64,000 nt of DNA from NCBI GenBank assembly GCA_947570175.1, contig CANOTJ010000002.1:33346-97345 (forward strand). Direction: 5' to 3'. The DNA comes from an uncultured Mycoplasmatota bacterium (lineage in GTDB: Bacteria > Bacillota_I > Bacilli_A > RF39 > UBA660). Below the pieces are notes generated by a model that was not told where the DNA came from, did no database searches, and saw only the letters and a program-made list of their open reading frames with translations. Each line of letters starts with the position of its first letter. The first letter of the stretch is position 1. A program made the position numbers and the translations under genes. Shown here in pieces: positions 16,059-55,314 of the stretch.

Positions 16059-16060
16059 CT

Positions 16061-17242: not shown

Positions 17243-17245
17243 AAT

Positions 17246-27803: not shown

Positions 27804-27836
27804 TTATCTCACCTCCTTATCTTTATTTTTCTTTTA

Positions 27837-28175
27837 CTACTCATTGTTAGAGTTATCTTGTTTAAGACTTTCTCTAGCATTTACTAAAACTTCATAATAG
27901 TTAGTTTCTATTTCTATATCTTCGGTATTAACAAGTAACATATAGATAATTTCACTTGCTTCGTTAGGATAGAAACGAACATCAACAAAAGTTTCTTGTT
28001 CTTCAGTAACTCGTGGGATACTATATCTCAACAATTTTTCTTTCAGTTTAGTAGCAGTTTCGCTTATTTTTTCATTATTAGAAGTCGTATATCTGGTAAG
28101 CATTTCAATTAAATAATTAAATTTTTCTATACTTAAATCCACCTTAACTGGTGGTATTCTTTTTTGATATGGCAT
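27837..28175 (-). CDS. Hypothetical protein (112 aa)
   Basis: ORF track. Confidence 0.4.
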   Translation of the reverse strand: MPYQKRIPPVKVDLSIEKFNYLIEMLTRYTTSNNEKISETATKLKEKLLRYSIPRVTEEQETFVDVRFYPNEASEIIYMLLVNTEDIEIETNYYEVLVNARESLKQDNSNNE

Positions 28176-28177
28176 AA

Positions 28178-28444
28178 TTAACCATCCTTTCTATTTTCTT
28201 TATAGCCACTTAAAAAAGCAATGATTTGCTTATTCTTAACGGCATTTTTAAATTCAATGATAATCATAGTTTCATTATTTTGTAGATTTGGTATTTTCGT
28301 TAAATCTTCCAATTTTAAAGCAAGTATTTTTTTATCAGTATTGAATCCTGCTTCAAATAGTTTTTCTAAAGTCTTTGTAATTTGACCTATATTATATTTA
28401 GTTTCCAAATAAATCCCTCCTAGACTTTCTCTACTAATTCGCAT
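28178..28444 (-). CDS. Hypothetical protein (88 aa)
   Basis: ORF track. Confidence 0.4.
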   Translation of the reverse strand: MRISRESLGGIYLETKYNIGQITKTLEKLFEAGFNTDKKILALKLEDLTKIPNLQNNETMIIIEFKNAVKNKQIIAFLSGYKENRKDG

Positions 28445-29076
28445 ATATAGATAATTTGCTTATTCGTATTGTGTCTGCAAGTGATTAAAGTTAGTGTGCT
28501 TTTTTCGGCATTTCTAACAATATTAGCAGTTCCTGTTTTCTCAATGTCGTATTGATTAACGACTTTGTACTTGTACTCGCTACCATTATAGAAAATACTT
28601 ACTTCATCATCTCTTTCGAGTTTATGAAGATTTTTGAAATAAGCAGTTCTTCCATTTCCAGAATGTCCTGCTAAAATCACATTACCTTTGTCTTTATCTG
28701 GCATATCAGATTCTTTGACAACAAGTATATTTCTATTAACATTGTTATAATAACTACCTTTATTTGCTAGACCTTTTTCTAACCCAATTTTAGGTATCTT
28801 AATTACTGCAAAATAATCTATTTTTGTTTTAGTAGGTTGTGGCTTTTCAGTTTCTACTTTTTCTTCTGGTACTTCTGGAGTAGTATCTTCTGTAATTTCT
28901 TTTTGTTCTTCAAAGAAAGTATCAATTAACTGTTCTTCGTTTTTTGTTTCGAGATAATTATATAAATACTTACCACCGATAATTAAAGTACCTAAAATAA
29001 TAAGTAAAGAGCCAACTACGATTAGTTGACCCTTACTATTTTTATTATTCTTGATTTTGTTTTTTCTTTTTAACAT
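28420..29076 (-). CDS. Sortase (transpeptidase), class B-like
   Basis: 218 aa; N-terminal TM anchor; catalytic 'LAGHSG' His region and 'TLITCRH' active-site Cys motif. Confidence 0.75.
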   Translation of the reverse strand: MLKRKNKIKNNKNSKGQLIVVGSLLIILGTLIIGGKYLYNYLETKNEEQLIDTFFEEQKEITEDTTPEVPEEKVETEKPQPTKTKIDYFAVIKIPKIGLEKGLANKGSYYNNVNRNILVVKESDMPDKDKGNVILAGHSGNGRTAYFKNLHKLERDDEVSIFYNGSEYKYKVVNQYDIEKTGTANIVRNAEKSTLTLITCRHNTNKQIIYICELVEKV

Positions 29077-31774
29077 AGATAATCGCTCCTATTCCTCCTA
29101 GAATAAACATTGTTCCAACAATTTCAATGAAATGTGATTCAGTAATACCTGTGCTTGGCACTTCAACGATTACTTTTTCATCAGTCATTGTTGCTTTTAC
29201 AATTTCGCCATCTTCAAGAATCTCAAAATACATTCTCTCTGGGTTTAAAGTATAGCCCTCTGGTGCTTCCTTTTCTAAAATATAGTATTTTCCATAGCGA
29301 ATTTCTGGAATAGTGATTTTTCCATTGTCATCAGTTCTTCCACTAAAAATCAACTCATCTTTATCATTGTAGATTTCGATTAAAGTATTTGGTAGTGGCT
29401 CTCCTGTTGATACATCAGTTTTAGTAAATTCAAGAGTTCCTGTTACTGGTTTATTTTTCATTTCAGCCTTAACGATTTCTCCGTTTTCTTTTAATTCAAA
29501 ATAAACTTTCTCATCAGTTATTACATAGCCTGTGCTTGGCTCTTTTTCTACGATATAGTATTTTCCAACCTTTAAATCAGTAATAACGATTTTTCCATCT
29601 TGATCTGTTTTACCAGTAAAGATTAGTTCATCATTTTCTGTATAGATTTCAACGATAGTATCTGGAATAACATCTCCATTTACTAAATCAGTTTTAGTAA
29701 ATTCAATAGTAGCCTTTTTAAGATAATTTAAAGCACTATATGATTCATAAACAACTGGAGTTTCATCATCAACTTGTTTTAATGTGAAATAGTGTTTATT
29801 TCCATCAAGAATATAGTCATCTTGTGTTTTTACTTCAATTAGATAGTATTTTCCTAGTGGAAGTTTCTTTGTTTTGGCATAGCCGTTTTCATCAGTAACG
29901 ATAGTATCTACTTTGTCGCCTTTATTATAGTATAAATGGTTTCCATCAGCAGACTTAATATCTTCTTCTGCATAGATTTCAAAAGTAACACCACTCAATT
30001 TTTTCTTGGCATAAACATATTCGCCATCTTTAATAACTAAATCTTCGCCGACTTTGTAAATTTCTAATTGACCTTTAATAGGTGTGTTCTTATAAGTTAC
30101 TGTGATAAATGCTCCATAAGTTGTGTAATTGTAATGTGTATCATTTCCAATAGTGAATTTTAAGCCATTTTTATCTTTTATATATCCACTTGGAGCAGAT
30201 ACTTCAATTAGTTTGTAATTTCCTGCGACTAATTTTAAAGGTGTTACTAAAATACCATTCTCATCAGTCTTAAATTCACTAATTACTTTACCACCTACGA
30301 ATTGTGATACATATTGTTTTGTATCTTCATTATAGATTTTGAAAGTAGTATCTTTAATAGCAATAGTCTTACCTGTTTCTTCATCTACTTTTCTTACTTG
30401 TAAATAAGCAGTCAAAGAGTTATTCAAAACATTGTAATATTGTTCTTTCTCACTTGTTTCACTTACTGTGATATAGAAGTCATAAATCTTCTCATAACCT
30501 GTTGTAGTATTTACTTGATGGAATTTCCAAACTCCATAAGGTAAATTGATAGAAGCATAACCGTTCTTGTCAGTTGTAATTTCATCAAACTTATTTCCAT
30601 TTGGAAAATAGATTTCAAAAGTAATGCCTTTTTCAGCATTTAAGAATTTTGTTTCTCCCTCAACGTGTTCGTATTGTTTTAAAATGCTTACATAGTTTTT
30701 AATTACTTTTTCTACAACATCTACTCTTGCAGAGTCTTTTCCTTTTACATCAATATTGTAGCGAGTTTTATCTAATTCATAACCCTCACTTGGTTTGATT
30801 TCTTGTAAATAGTAGTCGTTCCAGTCTAATACTGCGTCACTTTTAAAATATCCGTTTTCATCTGTAACAACTGTTGTCACTAATCTTCCAGTAGCAGTTT
30901 CGTATATACCATACTCTGCTCCTTTTAAAGTTGCTTGACCCTGTGCAGTTCCAGTTTCAACATCTTGTTTATAGCCCTCTACTGGTGTTGTATAACTATT
31001 TACTCTAACTCTAGCCATAACTGGATCAGTAGTTCCGGGTACAAACATATTTTGAATTTCGTTTCCTACGAATAACTTATAGCCACTAGCATAAGGCATA
31101 TTCTTTGTTAAAGTTAAATCAATTTTCCCATTTCTAGTAGGCTTAATTGTTAGTGTATTTCCATTAACACTATATTCTGCACCACTAACACTTACACTAT
31201 AATTTCCAAGTACATTGTTAGTATCTGTAAGAGTTATTGTTTCTCCTACTTGTGCTTTATACACACCACCATCAAAACTTGGTCTATCATAGTGGTGTTC
31301 GATTAGTCTATTGATTTCTGCTTTTTCTGCTGACACATCAAAGTTAGTACCTGCTCCCCATCTTTCTGTTGAGAAAGTTGTATTTGCTCCTTGACCAATG
31401 ATAATGTCCCATATCATACCTTGTGTTGCTGCACGATATTGTAGTGTCTGGTGTCCGGGATAAGTATAACCGTAGTAGCCGATTAACAATAGCCTTTCTT
31501 TTATTTCATTTGGAAGTCCTGTTGCTTCCCAACTTCCGGGATTATAAGTAGTTCCCTCTGGTATATTTGGCTCTATACAATATGATACTTCGCCATCCAT
31601 TTCATATTGCATAAAATACCACGAATGATGGTCTGTTCCATCTGCTCTTGCTCGGTCATAGTAATAACCGGATTTTGTTTTTGTTAAAGTTGCTGCATTT
31701 ACTGCTTGAGCATTAACAGTAAAGCCAAGTAAAATACCTAGTGTTAAAACTAGGCACATTCCAATTTTTTTCAT
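29045..31774 (-). CDS. Cell-wall-anchored surface adhesin with Cna-B/SpaA-type repeats and a possible N-terminal thioester-like domain
   Basis: Signal peptide MKKIGMCLVLTLGILLGFTVNAQA; five repeats of 'TD(E/D)NG...G(K/N)YY...E...P.GY'; C-terminal 'VPSTG' + TM helix + KKKK tail; N-terminal 'SYCIEPN' Cys motif. Confidence 0.75.
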   Translation of the reverse strand: MKKIGMCLVLTLGILLGFTVNAQAVNAATLTKTKSGYYYDRARADGTDHHSWYFMQYEMDGEVSYCIEPNIPEGTTYNPGSWEATGLPNEIKERLLLIGYYGYTYPGHQTLQYRAATQGMIWDIIIGQGANTTFSTERWGAGTNFDVSAEKAEINRLIEHHYDRPSFDGGVYKAQVGETITLTDTNNVLGNYSVSVSGAEYSVNGNTLTIKPTRNGKIDLTLTKNMPYASGYKLFVGNEIQNMFVPGTTDPVMARVRVNSYTTPVEGYKQDVETGTAQGQATLKGAEYGIYETATGRLVTTVVTDENGYFKSDAVLDWNDYYLQEIKPSEGYELDKTRYNIDVKGKDSARVDVVEKVIKNYVSILKQYEHVEGETKFLNAEKGITFEIYFPNGNKFDEITTDKNGYASINLPYGVWKFHQVNTTTGYEKIYDFYITVSETSEKEQYYNVLNNSLTAYLQVRKVDEETGKTIAIKDTTFKIYNEDTKQYVSQFVGGKVISEFKTDENGILVTPLKLVAGNYKLIEVSAPSGYIKDKNGLKFTIGNDTHYNYTTYGAFITVTYKNTPIKGQLEIYKVGEDLVIKDGEYVYAKKKLSGVTFEIYAEEDIKSADGNHLYYNKGDKVDTIVTDENGYAKTKKLPLGKYYLIEVKTQDDYILDGNKHYFTLKQVDDETPVVYESYSALNYLKKATIEFTKTDLVNGDVIPDTIVEIYTENDELIFTGKTDQDGKIVITDLKVGKYYIVEKEPSTGYVITDEKVYFELKENGEIVKAEMKNKPVTGTLEFTKTDVSTGEPLPNTLIEIYNDKDELIFSGRTDDNGKITIPEIRYGKYYILEKEAPEGYTLNPERMYFEILEDGEIVKATMTDEKVIVEVPSTGITESHFIEIVGTMFILGGIGAIIYVKKKKQNQE

Positions 31775-33643: not shown

Positions 33644-34445
33644 TTTTATATCGGTCTTTGCCACTTTCAAGCACCTCCTTTGCAAATGAAGAATATGCGT
33701 CTGCCACTTTGCTATTTTTGTCATACTCAAAAATACTATTTCCAGTAGAAGTTGCTTCTGCTGTCTTTATTGCAAAAGGTATTTGCGTATCATAAAACTT
33801 AACTGCACTTCCATAATTTTCTTGTAGTTGTGTTCTCATTTCTTTTGATAAGTTAGTTCTCTTATCTACTAGAGTAATTAAAACGCCATCTACTTTTAAT
33901 TTAGGATTGATTTGATTTCTTACTTTACTAACAGTCTTTAATAGTTCGGTCATTCCCATAGCAGAAAGATATTGACTTTGCATTGGGATTATAACACTAT
34001 CGGCACTTGCTAACGCATTAACTGTTAGTATTCCTAAAGATGGCTGACAGTCTATAAGAATATAATCATAATTTTCTTTTACTTTAGATAAACAGTTTCT
34101 CATAGTGTACTCCCTACTCATAGCACTAAACAATGACATTTCTAATACTGATAATCTTAAATTAGATGGAATTAAATCTATATTTTCTTGATGGTGTAAT
34201 ATAGATTCACTTGTCTGGATATTTTCATCATTCATTGACTGTTCCATTAAATTAGCAATAGTTATCGGTATTTTATCAAGTTCTCGCCAACCCATAGAAA
34301 TCGTAAGACTTCCCTGTGGATCTGTATCAACTACTAATACTTTTTTGCCTTCCTTTGCTAAAGCAACACCTAGACTAAAAGTTGTGGTGGTCTTGCCCAC
34401 TCCACCTTTCTGATTAGCCACTGCAATAACTTTGCATTGCGACAT
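33621..34445 (-). CDS. parA: ParA/Soj-family partition ATPase
   Basis: Deviant Walker A 'NQKGGVGKTTTT'; start chosen at ATG 34445 (MSQCKV...) with AGGAGG 9 nt upstream. Confidence 0.8.
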   Translation of the reverse strand: MSQCKVIAVANQKGGVGKTTTTFSLGVALAKEGKKVLVVDTDPQGSLTISMGWRELDKIPITIANLMEQSMNDENIQTSESILHHQENIDLIPSNLRLSVLEMSLFSAMSREYTMRNCLSKVKENYDYILIDCQPSLGILTVNALASADSVIIPMQSQYLSAMGMTELLKTVSKVRNQINPKLKVDGVLITLVDKRTNLSKEMRTQLQENYGSAVKFYDTQIPFAIKTAEATSTGNSIFEYDKNSKVADAYSSFAKEVLESGKDRYKNAVAKVR

Positions 34446-34807
34446 ATACATTTTCCTCCTTTCTTTAAACTCTAGCCACTCTATAAAAATAAAATGGCTA
34501 TGTATGGGCATAAAAAAAGAACTGACTATTTCTAACCAGTTCAAAGTATGTTTATAAAATTATCTTTTATTTGCCAACTTTAATAGCAATTTATCAATAT
34601 AATAAGTATCTTCATTATCTTTAATCAGTTTGTTTCTAAACTCTACTAATTCATCTATAATTATTCTATATTCATTATAATTTACTTTAAGTTTTATTTT
34701 TTTCATAAAAATTACACTTCCATTCATAAATATAGTATAATATGAATTGGTATTAAAATAAAAATGTGTGTTCTACTTTTTAAATGAATTTATCGACAAT
34801 TTATAGG

Positions 34808-35030
34808 GGGTTGCAATGTCGTAATCACCTTTCTAATTCTCATCATAAATATCATTAAAATCACTATGTTTTTATCAATTTTTAGTAATTTTACCACTTT
34901 TTACATTAAAATGTGCAAGATCTAAAATCAAAGAAAGCCTTTATTTATAAGGGTTTGCTAGGGGGTTGCAATAAATCGTAATCAACCAGTTGATAGTCGT
35001 ATTTTGTCGATTATTTTCCATTTATTTCAC
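34808..35030. repeat. Copy A of an about 220-bp direct repeat (about 80% identical to 36722..36940), bounded by 'GTCGTAATCACC' / 'ATCGTAATCAACC' boxes
   Basis: Manual alignment of the two regions; shared blocks 'CACTATGTTTTTA', 'TTTATTTATAAG(G/A)GTTTG', 'AAATCGTAAT(C/T)AACCAGTT', 'TTGTCGATT'. Confidence 0.7.
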
Positions 35031-35459
35031 TTCCTTTATTTTGCTTATTTCAAAATATTGAGTTTTCACTCCAGCTTCATTCAAAATTTTAAAAGCTTCT
35101 TCATCAGGATATTTATTAGCATAAATAACTTTTTTAATTCCAACATTTATTATAAGCTTTGCACAAATCATACAAGGAGACTTTGTTACATAAATTGTTG
35201 AATTATTTAAATCATACCCTTTCTTCAAGGAGTTTAATATTGCGTTTTGTTCTGCGTGAACAACTCTGCATAACTCTTGCCTTTCACCACTTTTTAAATT
35301 ATAGTTCTTTCTTAAACAAGTATCTATTGTACATGGTATACACCCATTAGGTACAGAATTATTTCCTTTTCCTAATACTTTTCCCTTTAAAAAAATAACA
35401 GCTCCAACTTTTCCCTTTGCACAATTAGCATTTTTTGACTCTTCAATCGCTATTTTCAT
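35022..35459 (-). CDS. dCMP/cytidine deaminase family zinc enzyme (ComEB-like)
   Basis: 'HAEQNAI' and 'PCMICAKL' zinc-binding motifs; start likely Met11 (alternative TTG at 35489 overlapping the upstream stop). Confidence 0.7.
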   Translation of the reverse strand: MKIAIEESKNANCAKGKVGAVIFLKGKVLGKGNNSVPNGCIPCTIDTCLRKNYNLKSGERQELCRVVHAEQNAILNSLKKGYDLNNSTIYVTKSPCMICAKLIINVGIKKVIYANKYPDEEAFKILNEAGVKTQYFEISKIKEVK

Positions 35460-35490
35460 AAATCTTTCATTCACTAGAATCACTTCCAAA

Positions 35491-35781
35491 CTATCTATAT
35501 AAATTTTTTAAAACATTAGTAAGACAATCTTCTGCTGTTTTATCTGTATCAGAAAAACGTATTCTAACTAATCTTCCATTTACCTTAAATACATAAGGAT
35601 TTTTTGTCTTCATAATAAAATCTAATATTCTTTCCTCACTAGGTTTTCTTCTATCTATTTTTATAGAAGTTATCTCATCTACATTTTCTAATTTTACATC
35701 ATCAAGATTTACATTTCTGCAACGTTCTAATTTTTCTCTTAATTCTTCAATATTATATTTATTCATAAAATCACACTCCAA
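35491..35781 (-). CDS. Hypothetical protein (96 aa), co-transcribed with the deaminase
   Basis: ORF track; -35 TTAACA / 17 bp / -10 TATAAT promoter at 35784-35812 on the minus strand; its 3' end is duplicated as a remnant at 37447-37580. Confidence 0.5.
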   Translation of the reverse strand: MECDFMNKYNIEELREKLERCRNVNLDDVKLENVDEITSIKIDRRKPSEERILDFIMKTKNPYVFKVNGRLVRIRFSDTDKTAEDCLTNVLKNLYR

Positions 35782-35783
35782 CT

Positions 35784-35836
35784 AAATTATATAGTTAATC
35801 ATAATTATTGTTAAATGTGCAATTTTAATTTTTATC
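35784..35836 (-). promoter_or_regulatory. Predicted sigma-A promoter with upstream 'AATTGCACATT' box
   Basis: Reverse complement reads AAAATTGCACATTTAACA-17bp-TATAAT, then an RBS and ATG 35781. Confidence 0.45.
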
Positions 35837-36705
35837 TATTCATTAATGGTACTTTCTATTTTTGGTTGCTCATCAACATATTGATAATTAAGTGCATTTT
35901 CTTTAGATATTGCAGATTTATTTGTCTCTTTTTCATAGGAAAGCCTTGCATCATTTGCAACTTTTCCGCCTCGCTTTGCAACATTCATATTTTCCTTTAA
36001 ACCCTGTGGATGTTCAGAAGTTGCAATATCGCGAGCAGCAATTTCACTAATATTAGTTAGCGCAACTTCTATATCAGTCATATTATCTCTTAAAGATTCT
36101 TTTCTAAGTCCTTTTAACTCTTTATACTCACTTGCTTTCATTCCAGACCAACCTTTATAAATTTCGTTTGTAAGTAAGGCATATTCCATCGGCTTGGTTA
36201 TGCCTCCTTCTTTCCAAATATCTGTAAGTTTAAATCTATCTACAATTCCTGTTAGTCTAGCCTTAATCCATTCATCAGAATATCCTTTGTTACGATAATA
36301 ATTTACTGCACGATTTATTGCAATTTCAGGATCAAATACTTCATCAATCCTCTCACTACCTAAATTAGCTAACCAAACTTTAAATGGTTCGGCCTTAGGG
36401 CTAGAAACTGATTCAATTAATCTTAATATTCCCTTTGTATCTAAAGCATCAGTTATACGATTTTTACCATCCTGAGCCTTCATTTTCAACTGCACGATTT
36501 CTTCGTGCAGTTCACTTCCTTCATCAATTAATCTTCTTTTTAAATCGCTCCAATAATTTCTTGGGATTTTTGCTTCAGTTAATGCACTTATTACATCGAC
36601 AACGCTAAAATAATATTCTTCTTTTTCACTATCCCAAATGCTTCTTATTTCTTTACCATCAAATAAATTTGATATTGTTTCTAATTTGTTGTTCAAATAT
36701 AACAC
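35836..36705 (-). CDS. Bro-N domain protein (phage anti-repressor / DinD-like)
   Basis: N-terminal 'FDGKEIRSIWDSEKEEYYFSVVDVISAL' Bro-N signature. Confidence 0.6.
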   Translation of the reverse strand: MLYLNNKLETISNLFDGKEIRSIWDSEKEEYYFSVVDVISALTEAKIPRNYWSDLKRRLIDEGSELHEEIVQLKMKAQDGKNRITDALDTKGILRLIESVSSPKAEPFKVWLANLGSERIDEVFDPEIAINRAVNYYRNKGYSDEWIKARLTGIVDRFKLTDIWKEGGITKPMEYALLTNEIYKGWSGMKASEYKELKGLRKESLRDNMTDIEVALTNISEIAARDIATSEHPQGLKENMNVAKRGGKVANDARLSYEKETNKSAISKENALNYQYVDEQPKIESTINE

Positions 36706-36721
36706 CTCTTTTCTATATTCT

Positions 36722-36940
36722 TAAATGTCTTAATCACCTTTATAATTTCTATTATAAATAACAACAAAATTACTATGTTTTTACGAGTTTTTAGTGTTTT
36801 TAACCATTTTTCAAATGAAAATATGCAAAATCTAAATGGAAGAATTTTCTTTATTTATAAGAGTTTGATGATGTTCTTAATTAAATCGTAATTAACCAGT
36901 TTATATTTTCACCATCTTGTCGATTCTCCATTTTTAATCA
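36722..36940. repeat. Copy B of the about 220-bp direct repeat (pairs with 34808..35030)
   Basis: Manual alignment; lies between the GNAT gene stop and the Bro-N gene start. Confidence 0.7.
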
Positions 36941-36945
36941 CTTTC

Positions 36946-37446
36946 TCACTGTAATTCTATTTTATAATATCTTGTTCCATCAATTTCTTCTAATAGTATT
37001 CCACCATTATTTTCTATAACTTTTGCAGAAGCAATATTACCTGCAGAAGATTGCCCATAAATTTCCTTAAAACCTAATTTGTTAAATTCATCTAATACTA
37101 ATTTTAATATTTTAGTACCATATCCTTTTTTTCTTTCAGATATCCTAATTGCATAATAAAAATTTCCTGACCATTTTTTCCATTGATCATCTATTTTAGT
37201 TCTTAGAGCAATATATCCTACTGGGATATCATTAACATACATAATATAAGTGACAGTTGGTGTATCATACTCACTAATATTCTGATATTTTCTTGCAAGT
37301 TGAGTTTCTAAATAGGCTTTAAATACATCATAAGACAAACCATTACATAAATTAGTTGACCCTGATTCTTTTAGTGGGATATCTTGATACATTTCATATT
37401 CAATAATCCCCATATTCATATTTAACTCTTTTAATTCATATTTCAT
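36946..37446 (-). CDS. GNAT-family N-acetyltransferase (166 aa)
   Basis: Motif 'RKKGYGTKILKLVL'; AGGAG RBS. Confidence 0.7.
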   Translation of the reverse strand: MKYELKELNMNMGIIEYEMYQDIPLKESGSTNLCNGLSYDVFKAYLETQLARKYQNISEYDTPTVTYIMYVNDIPVGYIALRTKIDDQWKKWSGNFYYAIRISERKKGYGTKILKLVLDEFNKLGFKEIYGQSSAGNIASAKVIENNGGILLEEIDGTRYYKIELQ

Positions 37447-37580
37447 TTTATCATAACTCCTATTTATATAAATTTTTTAAAACATTAATCAAACAATATC
37501 CAACATTTTCATCTGTATCTGAAAACATATTCTAACTAATTTCCCATTCACTTTAAATATATAAGGATTCCTTACCTCTA
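37447..37580 (-). pseudogene. Truncated, frameshifted remnant of the 3' end of a paralog of the 96-aa gene 35491..35781
   Basis: About 80% nt identity to 35491-35620; translates '...NPYIFKVNGKLVRI' versus '...NPYVFKVNGRLVRI', then a frame change due to a 1-nt difference in a T-run. Confidence 0.6.
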
Positions 37581-39281
37581 TAATAAATGATTCATTACCA
37601 ATTTTTTCCTTTTTAACTCGTTTTCCAATTTTGTAGTTATATCTTTGACTGTACTCTTATTAAATGGATTAGGCATATTATATTTATCTATTAAATCACT
37701 AAATGAGTAATATGACGCTACTTCCCCTATTTCTTTAAATAATTCTATACTACTTTCACAATTACTCCATATAGCAAAAGCCCCGAAATAAGATAATGCA
37801 TAATCAATATAATAGAATGGATCTAAATAAATATGAGATTGTCTATAAAAGTATCCACCATTATCTAGATTGATATGCCCACTATTGCTTTTTTCTAAAT
37901 GATACTTGTTAACTAGTTCTAACCAGGTATTTTTTATATCCTCAATTCTTAAATCTTTTTTAGAATAAATCGTTTGTTGAAATTCATCAACTAAACATAT
38001 ATATGGTAAATTGGCCACCAAATTATATATTTTCATAAAACAATATTTTTTGTAATCATCTTCCTCGAATAAATTACTAACATGATTCATCATGATTAAT
38101 TCCATACTATAAGAAAATATTTCGGCTATTTCCATGGTTGGATATTTTAATAGTGGTGAAATAATGTATTCTTTATCTTTTATAGAAGCGCAGTATTTTT
38201 GATAAGAATGTCCAATCTCATGTGTAGTTGTTTGTACATCTAAATACGAATTTTTATAATTACCTGTGATTACAGGTAATCCTGTTTCTGTTAAATAATT
38301 TGTAATCGAAAAATTTACTTTATCATCTCTTTGAATAAAATCAATATAATTATTTTCAAGCATATTATTAAATAAATTTGATAAATCTTCATCTACTTCT
38401 CTAAATGATTTTCTAAGTTCATTTAATAAATCATTACCATATACTTTTAATTTAGGCATTTCTTCAAAGAAAACGGTATCAAAATATTCTAGTTTTGTTA
38501 ATCCTAATTCTTCTTTTTGCCATTCACCTAGTTTTATACATAACGGAACTATACTTTCAATAATATTATTTCTAAATTTACTGATATCACTATAATCATA
38601 ACCAAATCTTTTTAGTTTATATAAACTGTATTCTACATAATTATTAAAGCCTAAATTTTTAGCAATCTGATTTCTTATCATTATAAGTTCATATAATATA
38701 CTAGTATATTCATCTTTATGTTTATAATAAAAATCATTTACTGTATCATGGGCTTTTTTTCTAAAGTTTCTATTTTTGTTACTGAAAAAACTACTAATAG
38801 TTCCTATTGTTTTTTCTTCTCCATCATATAATACTTTAGTCTTGTTTAAATTTCTATATTGAGTTTTTAACTCATTTTCTTTTTTCAACAATTCAATATT
38901 TTTATCAGATGTTATCCTTATTTGATATTCAATTATTTTAAAGAAATTATTAGGCATACTCTTCAATAATAAATCCTTAAACCTTGAATGATTCATTTCA
39001 TCATAAAAAGGTAAAAATAATAAATCAAATTTAGGCTTTAAAGAATTCCAATATTCTATTTCATCTTTATAATATTCATCATTTAAATTTCGCATATTTC
39101 TTATGTCTGCGTAATCAAACATCTCTTCAATATGGTTTTGAATGTTGTTAATATCCTTTACTATAGATAGATATACTTTAAAATCATCCAACTCTTTCAA
39201 TCGGTTGATTAAACTTTCTAAAGTTAATTTTGTTTGATCAAAATCAACTCTTTCATATTTTATTTGATCAAATCCAATCAT
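37578..39281 (-). CDS. M3-family oligoendopeptidase (PepF-like)
   Basis: 567 aa; zinc motif 'TTTHEIGHSYQ'. Confidence 0.75.
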   Translation of the reverse strand: MIGFDQIKYERVDFDQTKLTLESLINRLKELDDFKVYLSIVKDINNIQNHIEEMFDYADIRNMRNLNDEYYKDEIEYWNSLKPKFDLLFLPFYDEMNHSRFKDLLLKSMPNNFFKIIEYQIRITSDKNIELLKKENELKTQYRNLNKTKVLYDGEEKTIGTISSFFSNKNRNFRKKAHDTVNDFYYKHKDEYTSILYELIMIRNQIAKNLGFNNYVEYSLYKLKRFGYDYSDISKFRNNIIESIVPLCIKLGEWQKEELGLTKLEYFDTVFFEEMPKLKVYGNDLLNELRKSFREVDEDLSNLFNNMLENNYIDFIQRDDKVNFSITNYLTETGLPVITGNYKNSYLDVQTTTHEIGHSYQKYCASIKDKEYIISPLLKYPTMEIAEIFSYSMELIMMNHVSNLFEEDDYKKYCFMKIYNLVANLPYICLVDEFQQTIYSKKDLRIEDIKNTWLELVNKYHLEKSNSGHINLDNGGYFYRQSHIYLDPFYYIDYALSYFGAFAIWSNCESSIELFKEIGEVASYYSFSDLIDKYNMPNPFNKSTVKDITTKLENELKRKKLVMNHLL

Positions 39282-40223: not shown

Positions 40224-41510
40224 ATGAATTTAAATTATGCAATATTTAGAAGTGAACCTATTTATACAATTAACGATTTGGCACAAATAGGATCACATAA
40301 CAAACGTGAAAAACAGGCTTATAATTCTAATCCTGATATTAAGGTAGAATTAAGTAAAAATAATATAGAGTTAAAACCCTTAACAGAAAAATATGTTAAG
40401 GGTTTTAAAATACTTGTAAAAGATTATGAAAAGGAACATAACGAAAGAATGAAAACAGAGCGAGATGATAGAAAAAGAACTTTTAATCAAATGTTAGATA
40501 AATCTAAAAATGTTATTGCAGATGAACTATTATTTACTGCCACAAATAAATTTTTTAAAAATATGACAGAAAAAGATATACTTGACTGGGCTAATACTTG
40601 TATGGATTTTGTTTATGAGGATTTAGGTTATACTAAAGAACAAGTTTTACATAGTGTCATCCATTTAGATGAGGCAACACCACATATTCATTGTGTAGTT
40701 GTACCACTTGTTAAAAAGTTTGATAAAAGAACAAATACAGAAAGATATACTATTTCTAAAAAACAATATATTAGAGATAAAATACATTTATCTGAATTAC
40801 AAGATAAATACCATAAAAGATTAACTGACAAAGGTTATGATTTAGAAAGAGGTATTAAAGGTAGTGATAGAAAACATATTAAAATCAAAGATTACAAAAA
40901 GATAAATAGAAAATTAGAACAGAACTTAAATACTAGAAATGATAGACTTGATAAAATAATGAATGAATTAGATAAACGAATGGAAACTACTAAAACAATT
41001 CCATTTGATAAAAAACACATTGTAGTAGAAAAAGATACTTTTGATATTATGCATAAAGCTATAAATGAATCTAAAAAAGTTATGGAATTACAGCCTAAAA
41101 TAAATGAAATATTTAATGAGATAAATAACTATGCTGATAGTTATAATTCTTTAGAAAAGGATAATCAAAAATATCAAAGAGAAATTAAATCATTAAAAAC
41201 TAAAAATAGTAATCTATTACAAGAAAATAATAAGTTAAGAGCTTATATTGATACTATTTTAGAGGTTATTAAGAAGTTTTTTAGAAAACTATTACAAATT
41301 GATAATGAACCTACAAAAGAAGCCACTACAACTGAAATAAAAGACTATTATGATAATCAAGATTTTAATTCTAACGATATTTACGAAATAGCTGAAAATA
41401 CTACAAAAGAAGATGAGTTATTTGATTATGCTGATATTCCTAGTTATTTGAAGACTAGCAAGAAATCTTATAAAGATAATGACAAAGATGATTTTGAAAT
41501 AGGTTTATAA
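40224..41510 (+). CDS. MobV-family relaxase (Mob/Pre plasmid recombination enzyme)
   Basis: 'HLDEATPHIHCVVVP' HxDE...PHxH motif; 428 aa with C-terminal coiled-coil. Confidence 0.8.
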   Translation: MNLNYAIFRSEPIYTINDLAQIGSHNKREKQAYNSNPDIKVELSKNNIELKPLTEKYVKGFKILVKDYEKEHNERMKTERDDRKRTFNQMLDKSKNVIADELLFTATNKFFKNMTEKDILDWANTCMDFVYEDLGYTKEQVLHSVIHLDEATPHIHCVVVPLVKKFDKRTNTERYTISKKQYIRDKIHLSELQDKYHKRLTDKGYDLERGIKGSDRKHIKIKDYKKINRKLEQNLNTRNDRLDKIMNELDKRMETTKTIPFDKKHIVVEKDTFDIMHKAINESKKVMELQPKINEIFNEINNYADSYNSLEKDNQKYQREIKSLKTKNSNLLQENNKLRAYIDTILEVIKKFFRKLLQIDNEPTKEATTTEIKDYYDNQDFNSNDIYEIAENTTKEDELFDYADIPSYLKTSKKSYKDNDKDDFEIGL

Positions 41511-41579
41511 ATCAAAATAAATGGTTTTGCAAAAATGGCTAAAATATGGTATAATAAATACACAAGGAGGAGTTATATT

Positions 41580-41987
41580 ATGCCAAAAGATAATGTTACT
41601 ATTGCTGAAGTTTTAGAAAACATTCAAAAAAACATTCAAGTAAACCATATTGACTTGCAAACTTGGGAAAGATATTTTCTGTTTTATTATCAAGCAAGCA
41701 ATACAATGGAACTTGGTTTAGAAAATTTAATAAAATTAAATGGGATTTTGTCAGATGCCACAGTAACAGATATTAAAACAACAAAAGATGAAATTAGATT
41801 TAGATTAGAAGGAGATTTATTAAAAAAAGATTTGTCAAGATTACATTCAGCTTTAAATTATATTCGTAATGCATTTGATGACAATGGTTTTTTAAAGCCA
41901 GAATGGGCAATGTCTGAATCAGAAAAGAAAAAAATGATGTTTAACAATGACCCTGAAATAATAGAAAAAAGTTCACTAAAAAGATAA
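41580..41987 (+). CDS. Hypothetical protein (135 aa from ATG 41580)
   Basis: AAGGAGGAG RBS ahead of ATG 41580; follows mobV. Confidence 0.5.
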   Translation: MPKDNVTIAEVLENIQKNIQVNHIDLQTWERYFLFYYQASNTMELGLENLIKLNGILSDATVTDIKTTKDEIRFRLEGDLLKKDLSRLHSALNYIRNAFDDNGFLKPEWAMSESEKKKMMFNNDPEIIEKSSLKR

Positions 41988-41992
41988 AAATA

Positions 41993-42045
41993 AAACAGAA
42001 ATTCAAAAGAAACTTTGTAACTTATGAATTTCTGTTTTTAAAAAC
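41993..42045 (+). terminator. Rho-independent terminator
   Basis: AAAACAGAAATTC ... GAATTTCTGTTTT stem followed by a T-run. Confidence 0.6.
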
Positions 42046-42133
42046 TATAATTCCATTATAGTAACCCACTACTAAGTCGGTAAACCAACTTAGGTGGGCA
42101 AAGGGATAAATACCCCTTTTGAAACCCCATTAA

Positions 42134-42180
42134 GCAACATATTACAAAGTTTCACAATGTAATATTGTTGCCTTTTTATT
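42134..42180 (+). terminator. Hairpin plus T-tract, terminator-like
   Basis: GCAACATATTACA ... TGTAATATTGTTGC then CTTTTTATT. Confidence 0.45.
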
Positions 42181-42202
42181 ACACTATCGTTTCATAAAAA
42201 GA

Positions 42203-42262
42203 AATAACCTTAATGCTAAAGTCTAACGACTAAAGCAAAAAGGTTATTTTTTTCTTTTGATA
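42203..42262. terminator. Possible bidirectional terminator downstream of the XRE gene
   Basis: AATAACCTT ... AAGGTTATT stem flanked by A-run and T-run; long loop lowers confidence. Confidence 0.35.
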
Positions 42263-42340
42263 AATCAAAAGTATGAATAAATAAAATTACTTTTCCCACT
42301 TTCACTAAAAATAAATTTTTAGCAAAACGTGTTCGTAATT

Positions 42341-42949
42341 TTATTTTTCTTCATCTATAAAATCTCCTGTAAGAGTATTTAATTTTGTTGTAGATTTTAT
42401 TTTTGTTTTAGGAAATACCCCTCTATCAAATTTAGGATATTTTGATTTATCTAATTTTTCTAGATTAGGTCTAATCATAGGTATTAACTCTTTTAGTCTA
42501 TCTAATATCTCATCATTTGAAATTTCTTTATTTTCTATTTTTACTAGTTCTAATTTATCAATTAAATCAGCGATTCCACCTTTAATAGCGAAGTCAGTTT
42601 TTCTTCTTGTTTCAAATTCTTCTAAAACATCAAAATAAAATTGTTCGTAAGATTTAATTTGTTCTTGATAATCAGTAGTAGATCTTTTACTTAATAAATC
42701 TTTTCCCAAATTTATATCAACATCATCATATCCAGCAAGTTTCATAAGTTTAACTAAACTTAAACCTAAAGTTTCAGCAATACCTTTTAAATATAAAATG
42801 TTTGGTTTTAATCTTTTACCTGCCTCAATCCTTGATACTTCGGCACAATCCATATTTGATTTACGAGCAAGTTCTCTTTGTGATATTCCTAGTTTTTCTC
42901 TTGCTTCACTTATAGTTTTACCAAGTTCAGTAGTGTTTTTCTTTAACAT
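42341..42949 (-). CDS. XRE-family HTH regulator with C-terminal domain (about 202 aa)
   Basis: HTH 'ISQRELARKSNMDCAEVSRIEAG'; start chosen at ATG 42949. Confidence 0.65.
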   Translation of the reverse strand: MLKKNTTELGKTISEAREKLGISQRELARKSNMDCAEVSRIEAGKRLKPNILYLKGIAETLGLSLVKLMKLAGYDDVDINLGKDLLSKRSTTDYQEQIKSYEQFYFDVLEEFETRRKTDFAIKGGIADLIDKLELVKIENKEISNDEILDRLKELIPMIRPNLEKLDKSKYPKFDRGVFPKTKIKSTTKLNTLTGDFIDEEK

Positions 42950-43100
42950 TTTAATACACCTCTTTTTCGTTTCTTGAATTAAGTATAGCACATATTGCTG
43001 TAATAATCAACAACATTGTAATCATTCTGTTGACAAACTCATTTTATAATGTTATAGTAGTATCAGTTTTGATGTAAAAATCATCAACAAGAAAGGAGGA

Positions 43101-43358
43101 ATGCTTATAAGGAAGTTTCAAATACCACAGAAGATTTGGAAAGATAAAAGAATTCCAAAAGAAACAAAATATATTTACTCTTATATTTATACAAAAGGAT
43201 TCGATAGAATAATCACAGATATAAATATAGGAGAAATACAACAGACCATTAAAATAAAAAATAAGGGTTTGAAAAAGAGTTTAGATATATTAGAACAATT
43301 AAAATATCTAGCATATCAAGAGTATGCAACAGGAATGTACACCATAACACTTAACTAA
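43101..43358 (+). CDS. Small basic protein (85 aa), probable DNA-binding/excisionase-like partner of the recombinase
   Basis: Strong RBS AAAGGAGGAAtg at 43090-43100; plus-strand orientation with the recombinase. Confidence 0.45.
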   Translation: MLIRKFQIPQKIWKDKRIPKETKYIYSYIYTKGFDRIITDINIGEIQQTIKIKNKGLKKSLDILEQLKYLAYQEYATGMYTITLN

Positions 43359-43705
43359 AAAGTTTATAGGAACGTAGTTAAGTAAGGTACAGTAAGATGA
43401 AAGGCTTATGTTAGTACCTATTCTAGTAATAGAATGAATCTAGTTTGAAGTAAGACATAATTCAAAGAACAAATAAAATTTAAAAAATAGTATGTGTTAT
43501 TTCAAACAATATAATCTTAGGGGCGAAGATTTAAAATAATGCCTCTAGGATAACTCTGTCTAATTTTAGAAGTATGACTTGTAGATAATACAGTTTTTTT
43601 TGTTGTTTCTTAAAACTTGTTTGTTTAAATATTTAAAATAATGGAAAGGAATGAGATTAGCTATGAAAAATTATGATTAAAAATTAAACGAAAGGGGGAA
43701 TTTTA

Positions 43706-43858
43706 TTGGCTGATGAAAAGAAATTAACACAAATAGAAATTGATAATCTAATTGATGAAACAATTAACCTATCAATTTTATCAAAATTATTAGAATTAAA
43801 TTTAATTACAAATAAAGAGTTTTATACACTTAAAGAAAAAATAAAGAATTTCTATTAA
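43706..43858 (+). CDS. Possible 50-aa protein (TTG start)
   Basis: AAAGGGGG RBS 7 nt before TTG; below the ORF-track cutoff. Confidence 0.25.
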   Translation: MADEKKLTQIEIDNLIDETINLSILSKLLELNLITNKEFYTLKEKIKNFY

Positions 43859-43949
43859 AGGGATACAGATTCCATAAAAAATATTATATAATGGTTATAA
43901 GAACACGACTGCAGTTCGTAAAAAACTAAAAATGAAAGTGAGGTATTAA

Positions 43950-45707
43950 ATGGCACAAGTTGAGATTATTGCAGCTAATCTCAAAACTAATATTAAAAAT
44001 TCCATTAAAAAAGTATTAAAAAAAGTGTGTGCTTATGCAAGAGTAAGTACAGATAGTGAGGAACAACAGACAAGTTATAATTCACAAATTAAACATTATT
44101 CTAATATGATTAAATCAAATCCTGATTGGAAGTTTGTAGGAATATATGCTGATGAGGGTATTAGTGGTACTCAAGTTAAACATAGAACAGAATTTCAAAG
44201 AATGATAGATGATGCTTTAAATGGTAAAATAGATATTATTATAGCAAAATCAATATCTAGGTTTGCAAGAAATACTGTTGATACTTTAAATACAGTTAGG
44301 AAATTAAGAGAACATAATGTTGATGTTTATTTTGAAAAAGAAAATATCCATACTTTAGAATTAGATAGTGAGATGTTTTTAACTCTTTATAGTGCATTTG
44401 CTCAAGCTGAAAGTGAATCAACTTCACAAAATGTAAAAATGGGTTTAAAAGCCAAAATGAAACGTGGTGAATATGTTGGAAGACCTAATCCTTATGGATA
44501 TGATTGGAATAAAGATACACAAGAATTATCTATAAATGAAAAAGAGGCAGAAGTTGTTAGAATGATATTTAATTGGTATGCTGATGGTATAGGTTGTAAA
44601 ACAATATCAATGATATTAAATAAACAAGGTATTATTTCTCCTGGTGGTAAAAAATGGTCGCAACAATATGTAAGGACAATGTTAGATCAAGAAAAATATA
44701 TTGGAGATTTAATGGGGCAAAAGGTTTATACAATTAGTCCTCTTTCTCATAAAAAAATTAAAAACTATGGAGAAAAAGAAAGATATTATTCAAAAGATAG
44801 ACACGAGGCAATTATTTCAAGAGAACTTTGGGATAAGGTACACGATATTTTGAAAAAAAGAAATGGTAAACCTATGTTAAATGGCAAAAAGCATCAAGAA
44901 AGATATAGTATGCGATATGCTTTTAGTAGTAAAATTGTTTGTGGCTTTTGTGGAGCAAATTATTCTAGAAGATCAAGTGGCAAAAATAAAAATGGAAAAC
45001 AAAATATTTATTGGGCTTGTATGGGAAGAATAGATAAAAACGAATGTGAAGAATCTATCTATATAAAAGAAGAAATACTTGAAAATTTATTTATTCAAAT
45101 TTATAACTCCATAATAGATAATAAACATAAAACAAAAGATAAATTATTAGGAGCAATAAAATCTGTTATAGAAGAAAACCATGCAAAGACTAAACTAGAT
45201 AAATTAGAACTACAAGAAAATAATATTCGTACAAAAATATCTAATTTAATTGATTTAAAACTAGAAAACATTATTGATAAAGAGGCATACATTGAAAAAG
45301 AAAAAGAACTACAAAATCAATTAAACAATATCTTAGAACAAAAAGAAGAATATAAAAATCTAGAAAATGAAAATCACAAAATAGCAAAACAATTAAAAGA
45401 TATAGAAAAAGTTTTAGATACCCCATTAAAACTAAAAGAATTTGAACGAGAAGTCTTTGATAATATTATAGAAAGAATAATCATTGGTGAAATAGAAGAA
45501 GATGGTACACACAATAATAAGATAATTAGATTTATCTTAAAAACAGGAGCTGAATTTAAAAAAAACTTAAGTGAAAATACAGCTAAATTTAATGGAAATA
45601 ATAATGTGTCATTAGAGCAAAGAAAGACCACTATTAATATGGATATAATATTTCTTTTTAAACATAACAAAATTACTTCATTTGAGATGGAATCTAATAT
45701 AATTTGA
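43950..45707 (+). CDS. Large serine recombinase (resolvase catalytic domain + recombinase domain + zinc ribbon + coiled-coil)
   Basis: Catalytic Ser region 'YARVSTDSEEQQTSYNSQ'; 'GISGT', 'IIAKSISRFARN'; Cys-rich 'CGFCGANY...WACMGR'; 585 aa. Confidence 0.85.
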   Translation: MAQVEIIAANLKTNIKNSIKKVLKKVCAYARVSTDSEEQQTSYNSQIKHYSNMIKSNPDWKFVGIYADEGISGTQVKHRTEFQRMIDDALNGKIDIIIAKSISRFARNTVDTLNTVRKLREHNVDVYFEKENIHTLELDSEMFLTLYSAFAQAESESTSQNVKMGLKAKMKRGEYVGRPNPYGYDWNKDTQELSINEKEAEVVRMIFNWYADGIGCKTISMILNKQGIISPGGKKWSQQYVRTMLDQEKYIGDLMGQKVYTISPLSHKKIKNYGEKERYYSKDRHEAIISRELWDKVHDILKKRNGKPMLNGKKHQERYSMRYAFSSKIVCGFCGANYSRRSSGKNKNGKQNIYWACMGRIDKNECEESIYIKEEILENLFIQIYNSIIDNKHKTKDKLLGAIKSVIEENHAKTKLDKLELQENNIRTKISNLIDLKLENIIDKEAYIEKEKELQNQLNNILEQKEEYKNLENENHKIAKQLKDIEKVLDTPLKLKEFEREVFDNIIERIIIGEIEEDGTHNNKIIRFILKTGAEFKKNLSENTAKFNGNNNVSLEQRKTTINMDIIFLFKHNKITSFEMESNII

Positions 45708-55247: not shown

Positions 55248-55314
55248 TGAAAATCATCTCCTCTATAAATTTTTTCTATGTAGAAGTTACTTCTTTTATT
55301 TTTTATTTTTAAAT
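55158..55314. repeat. 157-bp direct repeat copy 1 (155/157 identical to 57191..57347)
   Basis: Manual alignment; covers the 5' end and upstream region of the MBL gene 54426..55247. Confidence 0.85.

Follow-up and report, generated by a model that had tools for sequence, protein, structure and literature searches.

What are two different cargo genes, a dCMP deaminase and a GNAT acetyltransferase, doing in equivalent positions between duplicated flanks in the 64-kb stretch of DNA analysed here (the window)? A reading of the sequence alone had noted two direct repeats of about 220 bp, each just downstream of one of these genes, and proposed that cargo was exchanged between conserved flanks; the repeat itself might be a recombination site, a promoter module, or a centromere-like or iteron region for parAB. 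Our analysis gives us high confidence in a different arrangement, in which the repeats are attachment-site junctions of an ICE of ~58 kb and of a small cassette lacking an integrase, inserted in tandem at the start of rbgA. A puzzling mosaic would thus be explained as ordinary mobile-element biology, and for a 58-kb ICE widespread in the gut the true left end is now marked.

Anatomy of the two repeats

The features on which the argument draws are the following.

1 to 34986, minus strand: left 35 kb of the ICE, running off the window at position 1 (Pfam)
34800 to 35034, minus strand: element copy A, probable attL-type junction of the ~58-kb ICE, comprising rbgA-5' arm, core, P' half-site and leader (profile match, positions 1-235)
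34803 to 34829, minus strand: box 2, putative second P'-like half-site, GGTGATTACGACATTGCAACCCCCTATA
34888 to 34918, minus strand: predicted sigma-70-like promoter in the leader (TGCACA, 18 nt, TGgTAAAAT; consensus scan)
34941 to 35021, minus strand: micro-ORF MENNRQNTTINWLITIYCNPLANPYK, ending in a stop; its opening 12 codons, up to Trp, repeat the rbgA N-terminus, and read-through into element DNA makes up the remainder
34959 to 34986, minus strand: class I P' half-site reading GTTGATTACGATTTATTGCAACCCCCTA on the minus strand, matched in reverse complement by the right-end P arm of the ICE (contig L129)
34987 to 34988, minus strand: probable crossover dinucleotide TG (CA on the plus strand), within AAC-TG-G
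34989 to 35016, minus strand: host-type (B) arm encoding NNRQNTTIN; an arm of that type directly precedes intact rbgA
35022 to 36705, minus strand: integrase-less cassette, with dCMP/cytidine deaminase (35022-35489), DUF6870 (35491-35781) and Bro-N (35836-36705) genes (Pfam)
36705 to 36942, minus strand: element copy B, apparent attL-like junction before the integrase-less cassette (profile match)
36713 to 36738: copy B box 2, also class II
36867 to 36896: copy B P' half-site, class II
36881 to 36931, minus strand: copy B micro-ORF MENRQDGENINWLITI, ending in a stop
36897 to 36898: copy B core CA
36946 to 37446, minus strand: GNAT acetyltransferase gene, cargo of the preceding cassette (Pfam)
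37460 to 37587, minus strand: DUF6870 3' remnant, the last ~36 codons with a 1-nt deletion, beginning at the M3 peptidase stop codon
37578 to 39281, minus strand: M3 oligoendopeptidase gene (Pfam)

The repeats are present where they had been placed, but at about 75% rather than ~80% identity: a repeat search pairs 34815-34911 with 36724-36820 at 77% and 34889-34995 with 36799-36905 at 73%, and conserved blocks of the two copies are visible in a MAFFT alignment. By profile they extend slightly beyond the earlier ~220 bp, to ~235 bp, and an HMM of copies A and B has only these two matches in the window (E = 7e-68 and 4e-61; next E = 3). The boxes said to bound each repeat are there (GTCGTAATCACC and ATCGTAATCAACC in copy A, GTCTTAATCACC and ATCGTAATTAACC in copy B), as is the reported gene order: all genes lie on the minus strand, and each repeat follows the 3' end of a cargo gene and precedes the 5' end of the next unit (Bro-N, or a 55-aa ORF followed by parA and parB).

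What the sequence-only reading had overlooked is that the 5' 50 nt of the repeat are a copy of the chromosomal rbgA start. On the minus strand, each repeat runs from the rbgA RBS through ATG and 11-12 rbgA (ylqF) codons to AAC-TG-G and on into element DNA, which consists of a ~28-bp P' half-site for a large serine recombinase, a stop-rich block, a promoter-like leader and, ~157 bp on, a second copy of the P' half-site. Copy A shares this architecture with the copies found elsewhere (at least 244), and the conservation of its micro-ORF has a 3-nt periodicity. The TG, at which we presume cleavage to occur, sits at the dyad ATCAAC-TG-GTTGAT, while the inverted-repeat score of the B arm against P' (13) equals random expectation (12.2 +/- 1.9). 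A leader block, GATCTTGCATATTTT...AAAA, is kept across 31 aligned copies; the leader is promoter-like, with a predicted activity that would read into the element. The earlier proposals of a recombination site and of a promoter module are both supported. Box 2 lies 155-158 bp past the first half-site in 66 of 76 copies. The rbgA-type arms of the window's two junctions differ (NTT versus DGEN), as if they had been brought from different hosts.

Between copy B and copy A, Pfam finds Bro-N, DUF6870 and the deaminase and no recombinase or transfer gene: an att-flanked unit without integration or transfer functions, followed directly by the ICE, whose left part encodes the 55-aa ORF, ParA, ParB, a thioester adhesin, a sortase, a 2598-aa SNF2 protein, a relaxase, a coupling protein and the first T4SS genes. 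We read copy B as the attL-like junction of a 2-kb cassette without a recombinase of its own, and modules of this cassette recur in other arrays. On the far side of copy B, the tail of the 96-aa gene (Pfam DUF6870) is duplicated and frameshifted, as had been noted (82% identity); what had gone unrecognized is that this remnant, fused to the peptidase gene, is probably a deletion scar. The M3 oligoendopeptidase gene itself would then be a former cassette that has lost its 3' junction. It is 76-77% identical at the nucleotide level, over the gene only, to cassettes in loci L037 and L040, which have element copies on both sides (L040) or an element upstream and rbgA downstream (L037). The left boundary of the array was not found in the window, and megablast of 34400-37700 against plasmid and phage collections gave no match.

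The ICE right end and the insertion point

We traced the ICE onward over the overlapping contigs L121, L123 and L129 at 99.97-100% identity (window to L121, 99.99% over 14.8 kb; L121 to L123, 99.99% over 11 kb; L123 to L129, 99.97% over 10.3 kb). Metagenomes in which this ICE occurs include ERZ14867576 and SRR26637661. L129 ends in genes for a resolvase-domain protein (154 aa), DUF6870 and two large serine recombinases (LSRs; 569 and 528 aa), followed by intact RbgA and RNase HII. LSR genes likewise adjoin junctions in L085, where one stands directly before rbgA, and in L117, where a triplet precedes an element copy. The window's own serine recombinase (43950-45707), considered as partner of the repeats, was set aside: its identity to the array-associated enzymes is only 26-29%, and it is encoded on the opposite strand.

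NCBIfam TIGR03596 identifies the target gene as YlqF (324 bits; cut-off 208), in agreement with Pfam; a family considered as ParA (f3) is likewise RbgA by both collections. Intact rbgA closes the array in at least 38 loci, and the left 50 nt of the element correspond to its RBS and first codons; at least 38 intact genes begin M..NRQN..INW-[YF]PGHMAK behind the shared RBS, and the similarity of element to rbgA stops at AACTGGT. The right junction in L129-L132, too short for detection by profile, was read by eye. The P arm of L129 (GGGGGGGTTGCATAAAAGTGTAATCAAC) and the P' of copy A form ~28-bp imperfect inverted repeats around TG, with ~24 of 29 positions agreeing by eye. Excision would be expected to yield a circular form whose joint, the predicted attP of ~50 bp, reads P-TG-P', or GGGGGGGTTGCATAAAAGTGTAATCAAC-TG-GTTGATTACGATTTATTGCAACCCCC; natural P-TG-P' junctions score up to 23/28, against 12.2 +/- 1.9 in random sequence.

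Two comparisons of empty with occupied sites locate the insertion. Over 5,111 nt, loci L133 and L140 agree at 99.9%, and they split right after AACTGG, into rbgA in L133 and a related ICE (50-aa ORF, ParA, ParB) in L140. The window and L052 share the DUF6870-GNAT unit (85% nucleotide identity), which in L052 is directly followed by rbgA, and diverge after AACTGGT at window position ~36895. Because both comparisons diverge there, we place the insertion point at AACTGG; the boundary of an MFS cassette common to L040 and L094 was not mappable, the DNA being too diverged. From the right end at rbgA and this insertion point, it follows that copy A is the attL of the ~58-kb ICE, an attachment-site identity that the sequence-only reading had missed, with the LSRs as the presumptive proteins that cut each site.

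At its far end the ICE thus carries the resolvase-domain gene, DUF6870 and the two LSRs, and behind them a P arm repeating P' in inverted orientation. With its RBS, start codon and N-terminal codons newly supplied by this arm and joined in frame at the Trp codon, rbgA stays intact after integration. DUF6870 does not appear to have been linked to a recombination module before.

Arrays upstream of rbgA and their origin

Related loci were chosen by an exact 20-mer in the core, and all counts are lower bounds among the matches listed; this selection, with the incomplete listing, biases locus frequencies. The loci are metagenome assemblies, in which repeats can be mis-joined. At least 244 element copies occur in at least 118 genome loci, always in one orientation and between lepB/rplS and rbgA, at a density reaching at least nine copies per 8 kb among the matches listed. 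Also among these matches, 66 of 124 intervals hold a single gene, and many different genes occupy the slot: 25 cases from 15 families between DUF6870 and the element, and 199 cases from 115 families directly upstream of the element. Neither an identity below ~60% nor a single copy without a variable gene, which would have spoken against the proposal, was encountered. Cargo includes GNATs, ASCH, UDG-like and nucleoside-modifying enzymes, HAD and histidine phosphatases, and transporters. The first gene after full-length copies, among the matches listed, encodes Bro-N in 32 cases, RhuM in 26, DUF6870 in 14, the 55-aa ORF or ParA in 6 and other proteins in 66. Cassette recombinases among the matches listed are of the serine type only, in at least seven loci.

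Most inner junctions have host-type left arms and are attL-like. Left-arm type reassorts freely with respect to P' class, and the two half-sites within an element stay linked, their classes agreeing in 65 of 69 copies (Fisher p = 2e-13); most exchange points therefore fall at or left of the core. LSRs normally recombine attP with attB only. With most inner junctions attL-like, a simple series of attP x attB events would suffice to build the arrays only if every cassette had a working attB-like arm at its end. The 2-kb cassette ends in a further rbgA 5' arm, which would regenerate the target and let the ICE insert behind it. Repeated tandem accretion, decay and deletion would then produce the mosaic, the DUF6870 remnant marking one such deletion. 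The region is cassette-like, as had been suggested; the idea of slots within one ICE gives way to separate tandem elements, the ICE and an integrase-less cassette.

Could ordinary homologous recombination do as much? If the repeats were only duplicated promoter or intergenic modules, RecA-dependent recombination between the DUF6870 tail and the 220-bp module could swap cargo without any site-specific event. The conserved promoter-like block would suit this, and a similarity of 75-95% over ~230 bp would let element copies recombine by homology; on the left of the cargo slot, the DUF6870 stop codon is the exact limit of homology, and the 4 mismatched half-site pairs among 69 look like occasional crossovers within the element. 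Such recombination very likely contributes to reshuffling, but as the whole explanation we consider it improbable, since it gives no account of why the left 50 nt are the rbgA start, why arrays always stand before rbgA, why palindromic arms surround TG, why recombinase genes lie at the element end, why breakpoints at AACTGG are sharp, or why boxes 157 bp apart are tightly linked despite free reassortment at the core. Had a tyrosine-integrase ICE made the junctions, as in streptococci, the target gene and the preservation of its N-terminus would be alike (PMC4701971), and the shared ~50 nt do resemble the direct repeats typical of such elements; yet the gene families examined include no tyrosine integrase, the ICE ends in two LSRs and a resolvase-domain protein directly at rbgA, and long inverted-repeat arms flank a dinucleotide as in serine-integrase sites, making this origin very improbable. 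Nor was a tyrosine integrase found among 12 longer unassigned proteins of the loci, one of which is by eye an IS110-type transposase.

We hold it scarcely credible that the element serves the ICE ParA/ParB as a parS/parC centromere-like or iteron region or an operator. Copy A does lie upstream of the 55-aa ORF, parA and parB and contains two direct repeats of GATTACGA-type boxes, but these boxes have their match in the recombinase half-site at the far ICE end, and copy B and most of the at least 244 copies have no adjacent par genes; the 55-aa ORF or ParA follows only 6 of 145 full-length copies (2 + 3 + 1; among the matches listed), so the association expected of parS is absent. A functional fold, whether an Frpo-like single-strand promoter, an attC-like hairpin, a cis-regulatory RNA or a leader-peptide attenuator, might be suggested by genes that all point to the relaxase, as in plasmid leading regions, and by the small ORF, which is conserved and has a strong RBS. 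As single-stranded DNA, however, neither strand of either copy folds with excess stability (z = -0.27 to -0.53), RNAalifold on 31 copies gives -0.66 kcal/mol with no compensatory pair, and Rfam has no match at gathering thresholds, its one L20-leader match (E = 4) being at chance level. With no stable conserved structure, the Frpo-, attC- and riboswitch-like ideas fall away; the conservation of the small ORF is accounted for by rbgA homology and the half-site, and in L054 and L105 it runs on as RbgA, which disposes of a leader peptide. A folded element therefore has almost no probability in our estimation.

Returning to attachment-site junctions at rbgA, we tentatively suggest a broader role, itself doubtful at present: that the rbgA 5' end in many gut Bacillota is an integron-like platform. 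Cassettes of one to three genes, each with its own promoter-like leader and ending in a copy of the rbgA start that regenerates the target, might be captured, excised and reordered in trans by the LSRs of ICEs, possibly with DUF6870 and the second half-site as accessories, and might travel between hosts with these ICEs; alternatively, they may be passively carried and reshuffled. Either way, many uncultured gut Bacillota have a hotspot before this essential gene of ribosome assembly, with more than 100 gene families stacked between recombination sites. If serine recombinases do move small units in trans, this would be a second, independent route to gene-cassette arrays besides integrons, and the natural attP/attB pairs, in at least three specificity classes, could become genome-engineering tools.

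Comparison with known systems

Known serine-integrase sites have, to our knowledge, neither the conserved 180-nt leader nor the second half-site, a point that weighs against the attachment-site reading.

That ICEs and CIME-like cassettes accrete in tandem is known in principle; the targeting of rbgA by serine recombinases and the dense arrays make this a new form of it. In the ICESt1/ICESt3 paradigm, ICEs or IMEs accrete in tandem with CIMEs (Pavlovic et al. 2004, reviewed in PMC5704250). Here, too, units that keep att sites without integration or transfer genes stand in tandem with an ICE at one conserved target gene, whose end is copied at every junction. Unlike ICESt1/ICESt3, the recombinases are of the serine rather than the tyrosine type, the target is the rbgA 5' end, a unit is often just one gene (in 66 of 124 intervals among the matches listed), the density of junctions reaching at least nine in 8 kb, and each junction carries a ~180-nt conserved promoter-like leader and a duplicated half-site.

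The composite SCC islands of staphylococci at rlmH (orfX), with CcrAB/CcrC and pseudo-SCC forms, and the Dehalococcoides ssrA islands (DsiB/DsiA) resemble this system in having two serine recombinases, one large and a second, at a single-copy essential gene, and in forming tandem islands bounded by a target repeat, some without recombinases. Unlike those of SCC, the window-family LSRs are not Ccr equivalogs: CcrB, CcrC and CcrA models score 61-102 bits for both LSRs against cut-offs of 700-900 (NCBIfam CcrB, 102 against 900). Because insertion is at the 5' end of rbgA and not at the 3' end of rlmH, an RBS and N-terminal codons have to come from the element; the units are much smaller, and DUF6870 belongs to the module.

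Streptococcal ICEs of the Tn1549/Tn5252 family also insert into the rbgA 5' end, with a tyrosine integrase and 12-54-bp direct repeats (Ambroset et al. 2016, PMC4701971). Target gene and end are the same, the RbgA N-terminus is preserved in both, and the conjugation module is Tn1549-like (MobA/VirD2 relaxase, DUF3801, TraG-like coupling protein, PrgI, VirB4); serine recombinases and palindromic arms set the present elements apart, and dense cassette arrays are unreported for the streptococcal ones. Finally, like integrons and the Vibrio superintegron, the loci hold long arrays running in one direction, in which a repeated recombination-site element separates cassettes of mostly one gene, with very diverse cargo in an order that varies across genomes. 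Unlike integrons, they are without an IntI tyrosine recombinase, none having been found in the loci, their repeat is not folded like attC, each unit has its own promoter-like leader, and the platform is the start of a housekeeping gene rather than attI.

The two repeats and their surroundings

The sequence-only reading proposed two direct repeats in this region, and we recovered both by repeat search, MAFFT alignment and a profile search of the window. The repeat search paired 34815-34911 with 36724-36820 (77% identity) and 34889-34995 with 36799-36905 (73%); MAFFT placed long conserved blocks in common between copy A (34800-35034) and copy B (36705-36942), and the two-copy profile matched only these copies in the window (E = 7e-68 and 4e-61; next match, E = 3). 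The 96-aa gene, a DUF6870 member by Pfam, was also said to have a duplicated tail, and its C-terminal third indeed recurs at 37460-37587 with 82% identity and a 1-nt deletion. Every array gene of the window lies on the minus strand, transcribed in this order:

M3 peptidase gene
37460-37587, minus: DUF6870 remnant
GNAT gene
36705-36942: copy B
Bro-N protein gene
35491-35781, minus: DUF6870 gene (96 aa)
35022-35489, minus: dCMP/cytidine deaminase gene
34800-35034: copy A
55-aa ORF (translation probably starting at MKKIKL)
34519-34542, minus: terminator-like hairpin (10 pairs and a T-run)
ParA gene, then ParB gene
thioester adhesin gene, then sortase gene
2598-aa SNF2 protein gene
MobA/VirD2 relaxase gene, then coupling protein gene

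The genes downstream of copy A constitute a Tn1549-like ICE. Within 20007-31774 it encodes, besides the sortase, the 2598-aa SNF2/ResIII helicase and a 909-aa adhesin that has a thioester domain, six SpaA repeats and a VPSTG sorting signal. The stretch 40224-45707, which lies upstream of the array, looks like a separate small mobilizable element: it carries a Mob_Pre relaxase (40224-41510, strand opposite to the array) with a 150-aa ORF beside it, an HTH_3 regulator (42341-42991, minus strand) and a 585-aa large serine recombinase (43950-45707, strand opposite to the array; 26-29% identity to the array-associated ones). Farther upstream, 54426-56806 holds a Fic/DOC gene and two metallo-beta-lactamase-fold genes, one with a weak, below-cut-off match to Anti-Pycsar Apyc1.

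Folding the 220-bp element and searching it against Rfam, as had been suggested, yielded neither a stable fold nor a family: single-stranded folds of both strands of both copies gave z-scores of -0.27 to -0.53, and RNAalifold on 31 copies gave -0.66 kcal/mol with no compensatory pairs. These results rule out an attC-like hairpin, a Frpo-type single-strand promoter and a structured RNA.

Cassette arrays at the 5' end of rbgA

Related loci were picked by an exact 20-mer from the element core, AACTGGTTRATTACGATTTA, which matched one IMG/VR contig and at least 119 stretches in one-genome-per-species GTDB contigs, the listed matches coming mostly from gut 'Bacilli', 'Tenericutes', Erysipelotrichaceae and Clostridia MAGs. 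Searching with an iterated nhmmer profile, we found at least 244 element copies at at least 118 loci, counts biased by the choice of metagenome assemblies through the core 20-mer, in which some joins could be wrong. At least 66 loci hold two to nine copies inside 8 kb (nine in L101, seven in L040), and among the matches listed the copies within each locus share one orientation, adjacent copies start a median of 1,184 bp apart (124 pairs) and 66 of the 124 intervals contain a single gene. Directly upstream of an element we counted at least 115 gene families in at least 199 cases; the variable slot that had been proposed behind DUF6870 is real, DUF6870-X-element being filled by at least 15 families in at least 25 cases. 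Loci L040 and L094 have cassettes in common (MFS transporter; f117-f34) in different order. Cargo among the matches listed consists of small enzymes and transporters: GNATs, ASCH, UDG family, nucleoside 2-deoxyribosyltransferase-like, HAD, histidine phosphatase, MFS, EamA, radical SAM, methyltransferase, DUF488 and M3 peptidase. The window's cargo deaminase (35022-35489) has partial, below-cut-off matches to ComEB and to the NCBIfam anti-phage dCTP deaminase (92 bits, cut-off 400), and nucleotide-modifying enzymes (UDG family, nucleoside deoxyribosyltransferase-like, ASCH) occur in several other cassettes.

The element consensus opens with GGAAGTGA and, five to six bases on, an ATG; the next 11-17 codons or so are conserved with a 3-nt period and finish as ATn AAC TGG TTG ATT ACG ATT. 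More than 150 copies encode M..N(RQN/ENKT)..INW-LITI. At two loci, L054 and L105, the match is confined to the first 51 profile positions and the ORF runs on as ...INW-FPGHMAKT, the N-terminus of RbgA/YlqF. The same GTPase closes the arrays: a family of about 290 aa follows the last cassette in at least 38 loci and matches Pfam MMR_HSR1/RsgA and NCBIfam TIGR03596 YlqF (324 bits, cut-off 208). Array neighbours are rimM, trmD, rplS and lepB upstream and rnhB, or mini-RNase III and others, downstream (rimM, trmD, topA and some others assigned by eye). In 38 of 38 loci among the matches listed, rbgA and element are alike as far as AACTGGT and differ beyond it. At these loci the N-terminal RbgA extension ahead of the conserved W[YF]PGHMAK is highly variable, both in sequence and in length (for example MENNRQNSTNINW, MNENKTNINW and MSNNEKQGGLHKSVINW), and seems to record the last element at the site.

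Occupied sites, junctions and the reconstructed attP

Two comparisons of empty with occupied sites place the insertion point. Loci L133 and L140 stay 99.9% identical through 5,111 nt of their cassette arrays and part immediately after AACTGG, where L133 continues into rbgA and L140 into the leader, 50-aa ORF, ParA and ParB of a related ICE. Likewise, the window shares a DUF6870-GNAT unit with L052 (85% identity) until homology stops after AACTGGT, at window position ~36895; beyond lie rbgA in L052, and copy B with its cassette in the window. The L140 ICE (5111-5540) has parA/parB at ~73% nucleotide identity to the window, an identical crossover point, and a fourth, unrelated P' arm (element-side half-site), GTAGTGGGGATTTTAGAAAAACCAC, followed by the same CTTATAAATAAAGG block.

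A chain of overlapping metagenome contigs leads to the far end of this ICE, from the window to L121 (99.99% over 14.8 kb), on to L123 (99.99%, 11.0 kb) and then to L129 (99.97%, 10.3 kb); summing the overlaps gives a core-to-core length of ~58.4 kb. Beyond the T4SS genes come ABC-transporter/two-component cargo and a terminal block of a sigma-70-like protein, PemK, a 154-aa resolvase-domain protein, DUF6870 (91 aa) and two large serine recombinases (569 and 528 aa), with RbgA and RNase HII immediately after. At the right junction, CAGGGGGGGTTGCATAAAAGTGTAATCAAC-TG-GTTTCCAGGTCATATGGCC, the arm on the left side of TG reverse-complements the copy A arm on its right side (GTTGATTACGATTTATTGCAACCCCCTA), with agreement at ~24 of 29 positions as judged by eye. 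This makes the reconstructed attP an imperfect palindrome of ~2 x 28 bp around the dinucleotide, the form expected of a serine integrase attP. DUF6870, for which we sought a fold and could assign none, recurs in L129 (within 13681-17874), L117 and the window (35491-35781): at the ICE end it sits between the resolvase-domain protein and the two recombinases, integrase-less cassettes keep it with cargo following, and a ~280-aa protein clustering with it opens some cassettes.

We distinguish at least three classes of P' half-site, each with matching palindromic P arms:

P' class I: TTGCAACCCC
P' class II: TTAAGAAC
P' class III: TAGTCTAAG

NRQN-type left arms, including those of both window copies, show no such symmetry to P' (13, against 12.2 +/- 1.9 at random), and arms of this type stand immediately before intact rbgA; they are therefore host-type (B) arms. 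Among the matches listed, 66 of 76 full copies carry a second P'-like half-site 155-158 bp downstream, and for 65 of 69 the two half-sites agree in class (Fisher p = 2e-13, ignoring kinship), class I at both in copy A and class II at both in copy B. Since left-arm type and P' class combine freely while the half-site classes are linked, exchange occurs at the core or to its left, and seldom between the boxes. The second box (window 34803-34829 and 36713-36738) keeps a fixed spacing of about 15 helical turns; we know of no serine-integrase site with such a phased second half-site. The interval between the boxes contains a stop-rich block, CTTATAAATAAAG, in which the orphaned micro-ORF terminates, and a conserved sigma-70-like sequence (in copy A TGCACA, 18 nt, TGgTAAAAT), for which we infer promoter activity.

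Copy A is thus the attL of the ICE, and copy B an attL-like junction of a 2-kb unit without recombinase or transfer genes, a CIME-like cassette whose last 50 nt form a further rbgA-type arm, with the ICE behind it. The GNAT gene is part of yet another unit. Element copies flank the peptidase gene in L040; in L037 an element precedes it and rbgA follows it. After the window peptidase, the 3' junction, the next unit's first gene and two thirds of DUF6870 are absent, which marks the DUF6870 remnant as a deletion scar. We found no left array boundary in the window, and lepB and rplS are absent from 46 to 64 kb. As a rule, large serine recombinases join attP to attB and to no other site; among the matches listed, the majority of inner junctions resemble attL. 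Some of the reshuffling probably comes from homologous recombination between the 230-bp copies.

Relation to known tandem islands

Tandem accretion of ICEs and IMEs with CIMEs is established (PMC5704250), with serine-recombinase examples in SCC composite islands and the Dehalococcoides ssrA islands (PMC3146451). Literature searches returned no paper on DUF6870 and none linking a serine recombinase to ylqF/rbgA. What is new here is the pairing of serine recombinases with rbgA, how densely the units are packed and how small they are, the conserved leader carrying a phased second half-site, and the placement of DUF6870 in the recombination module.
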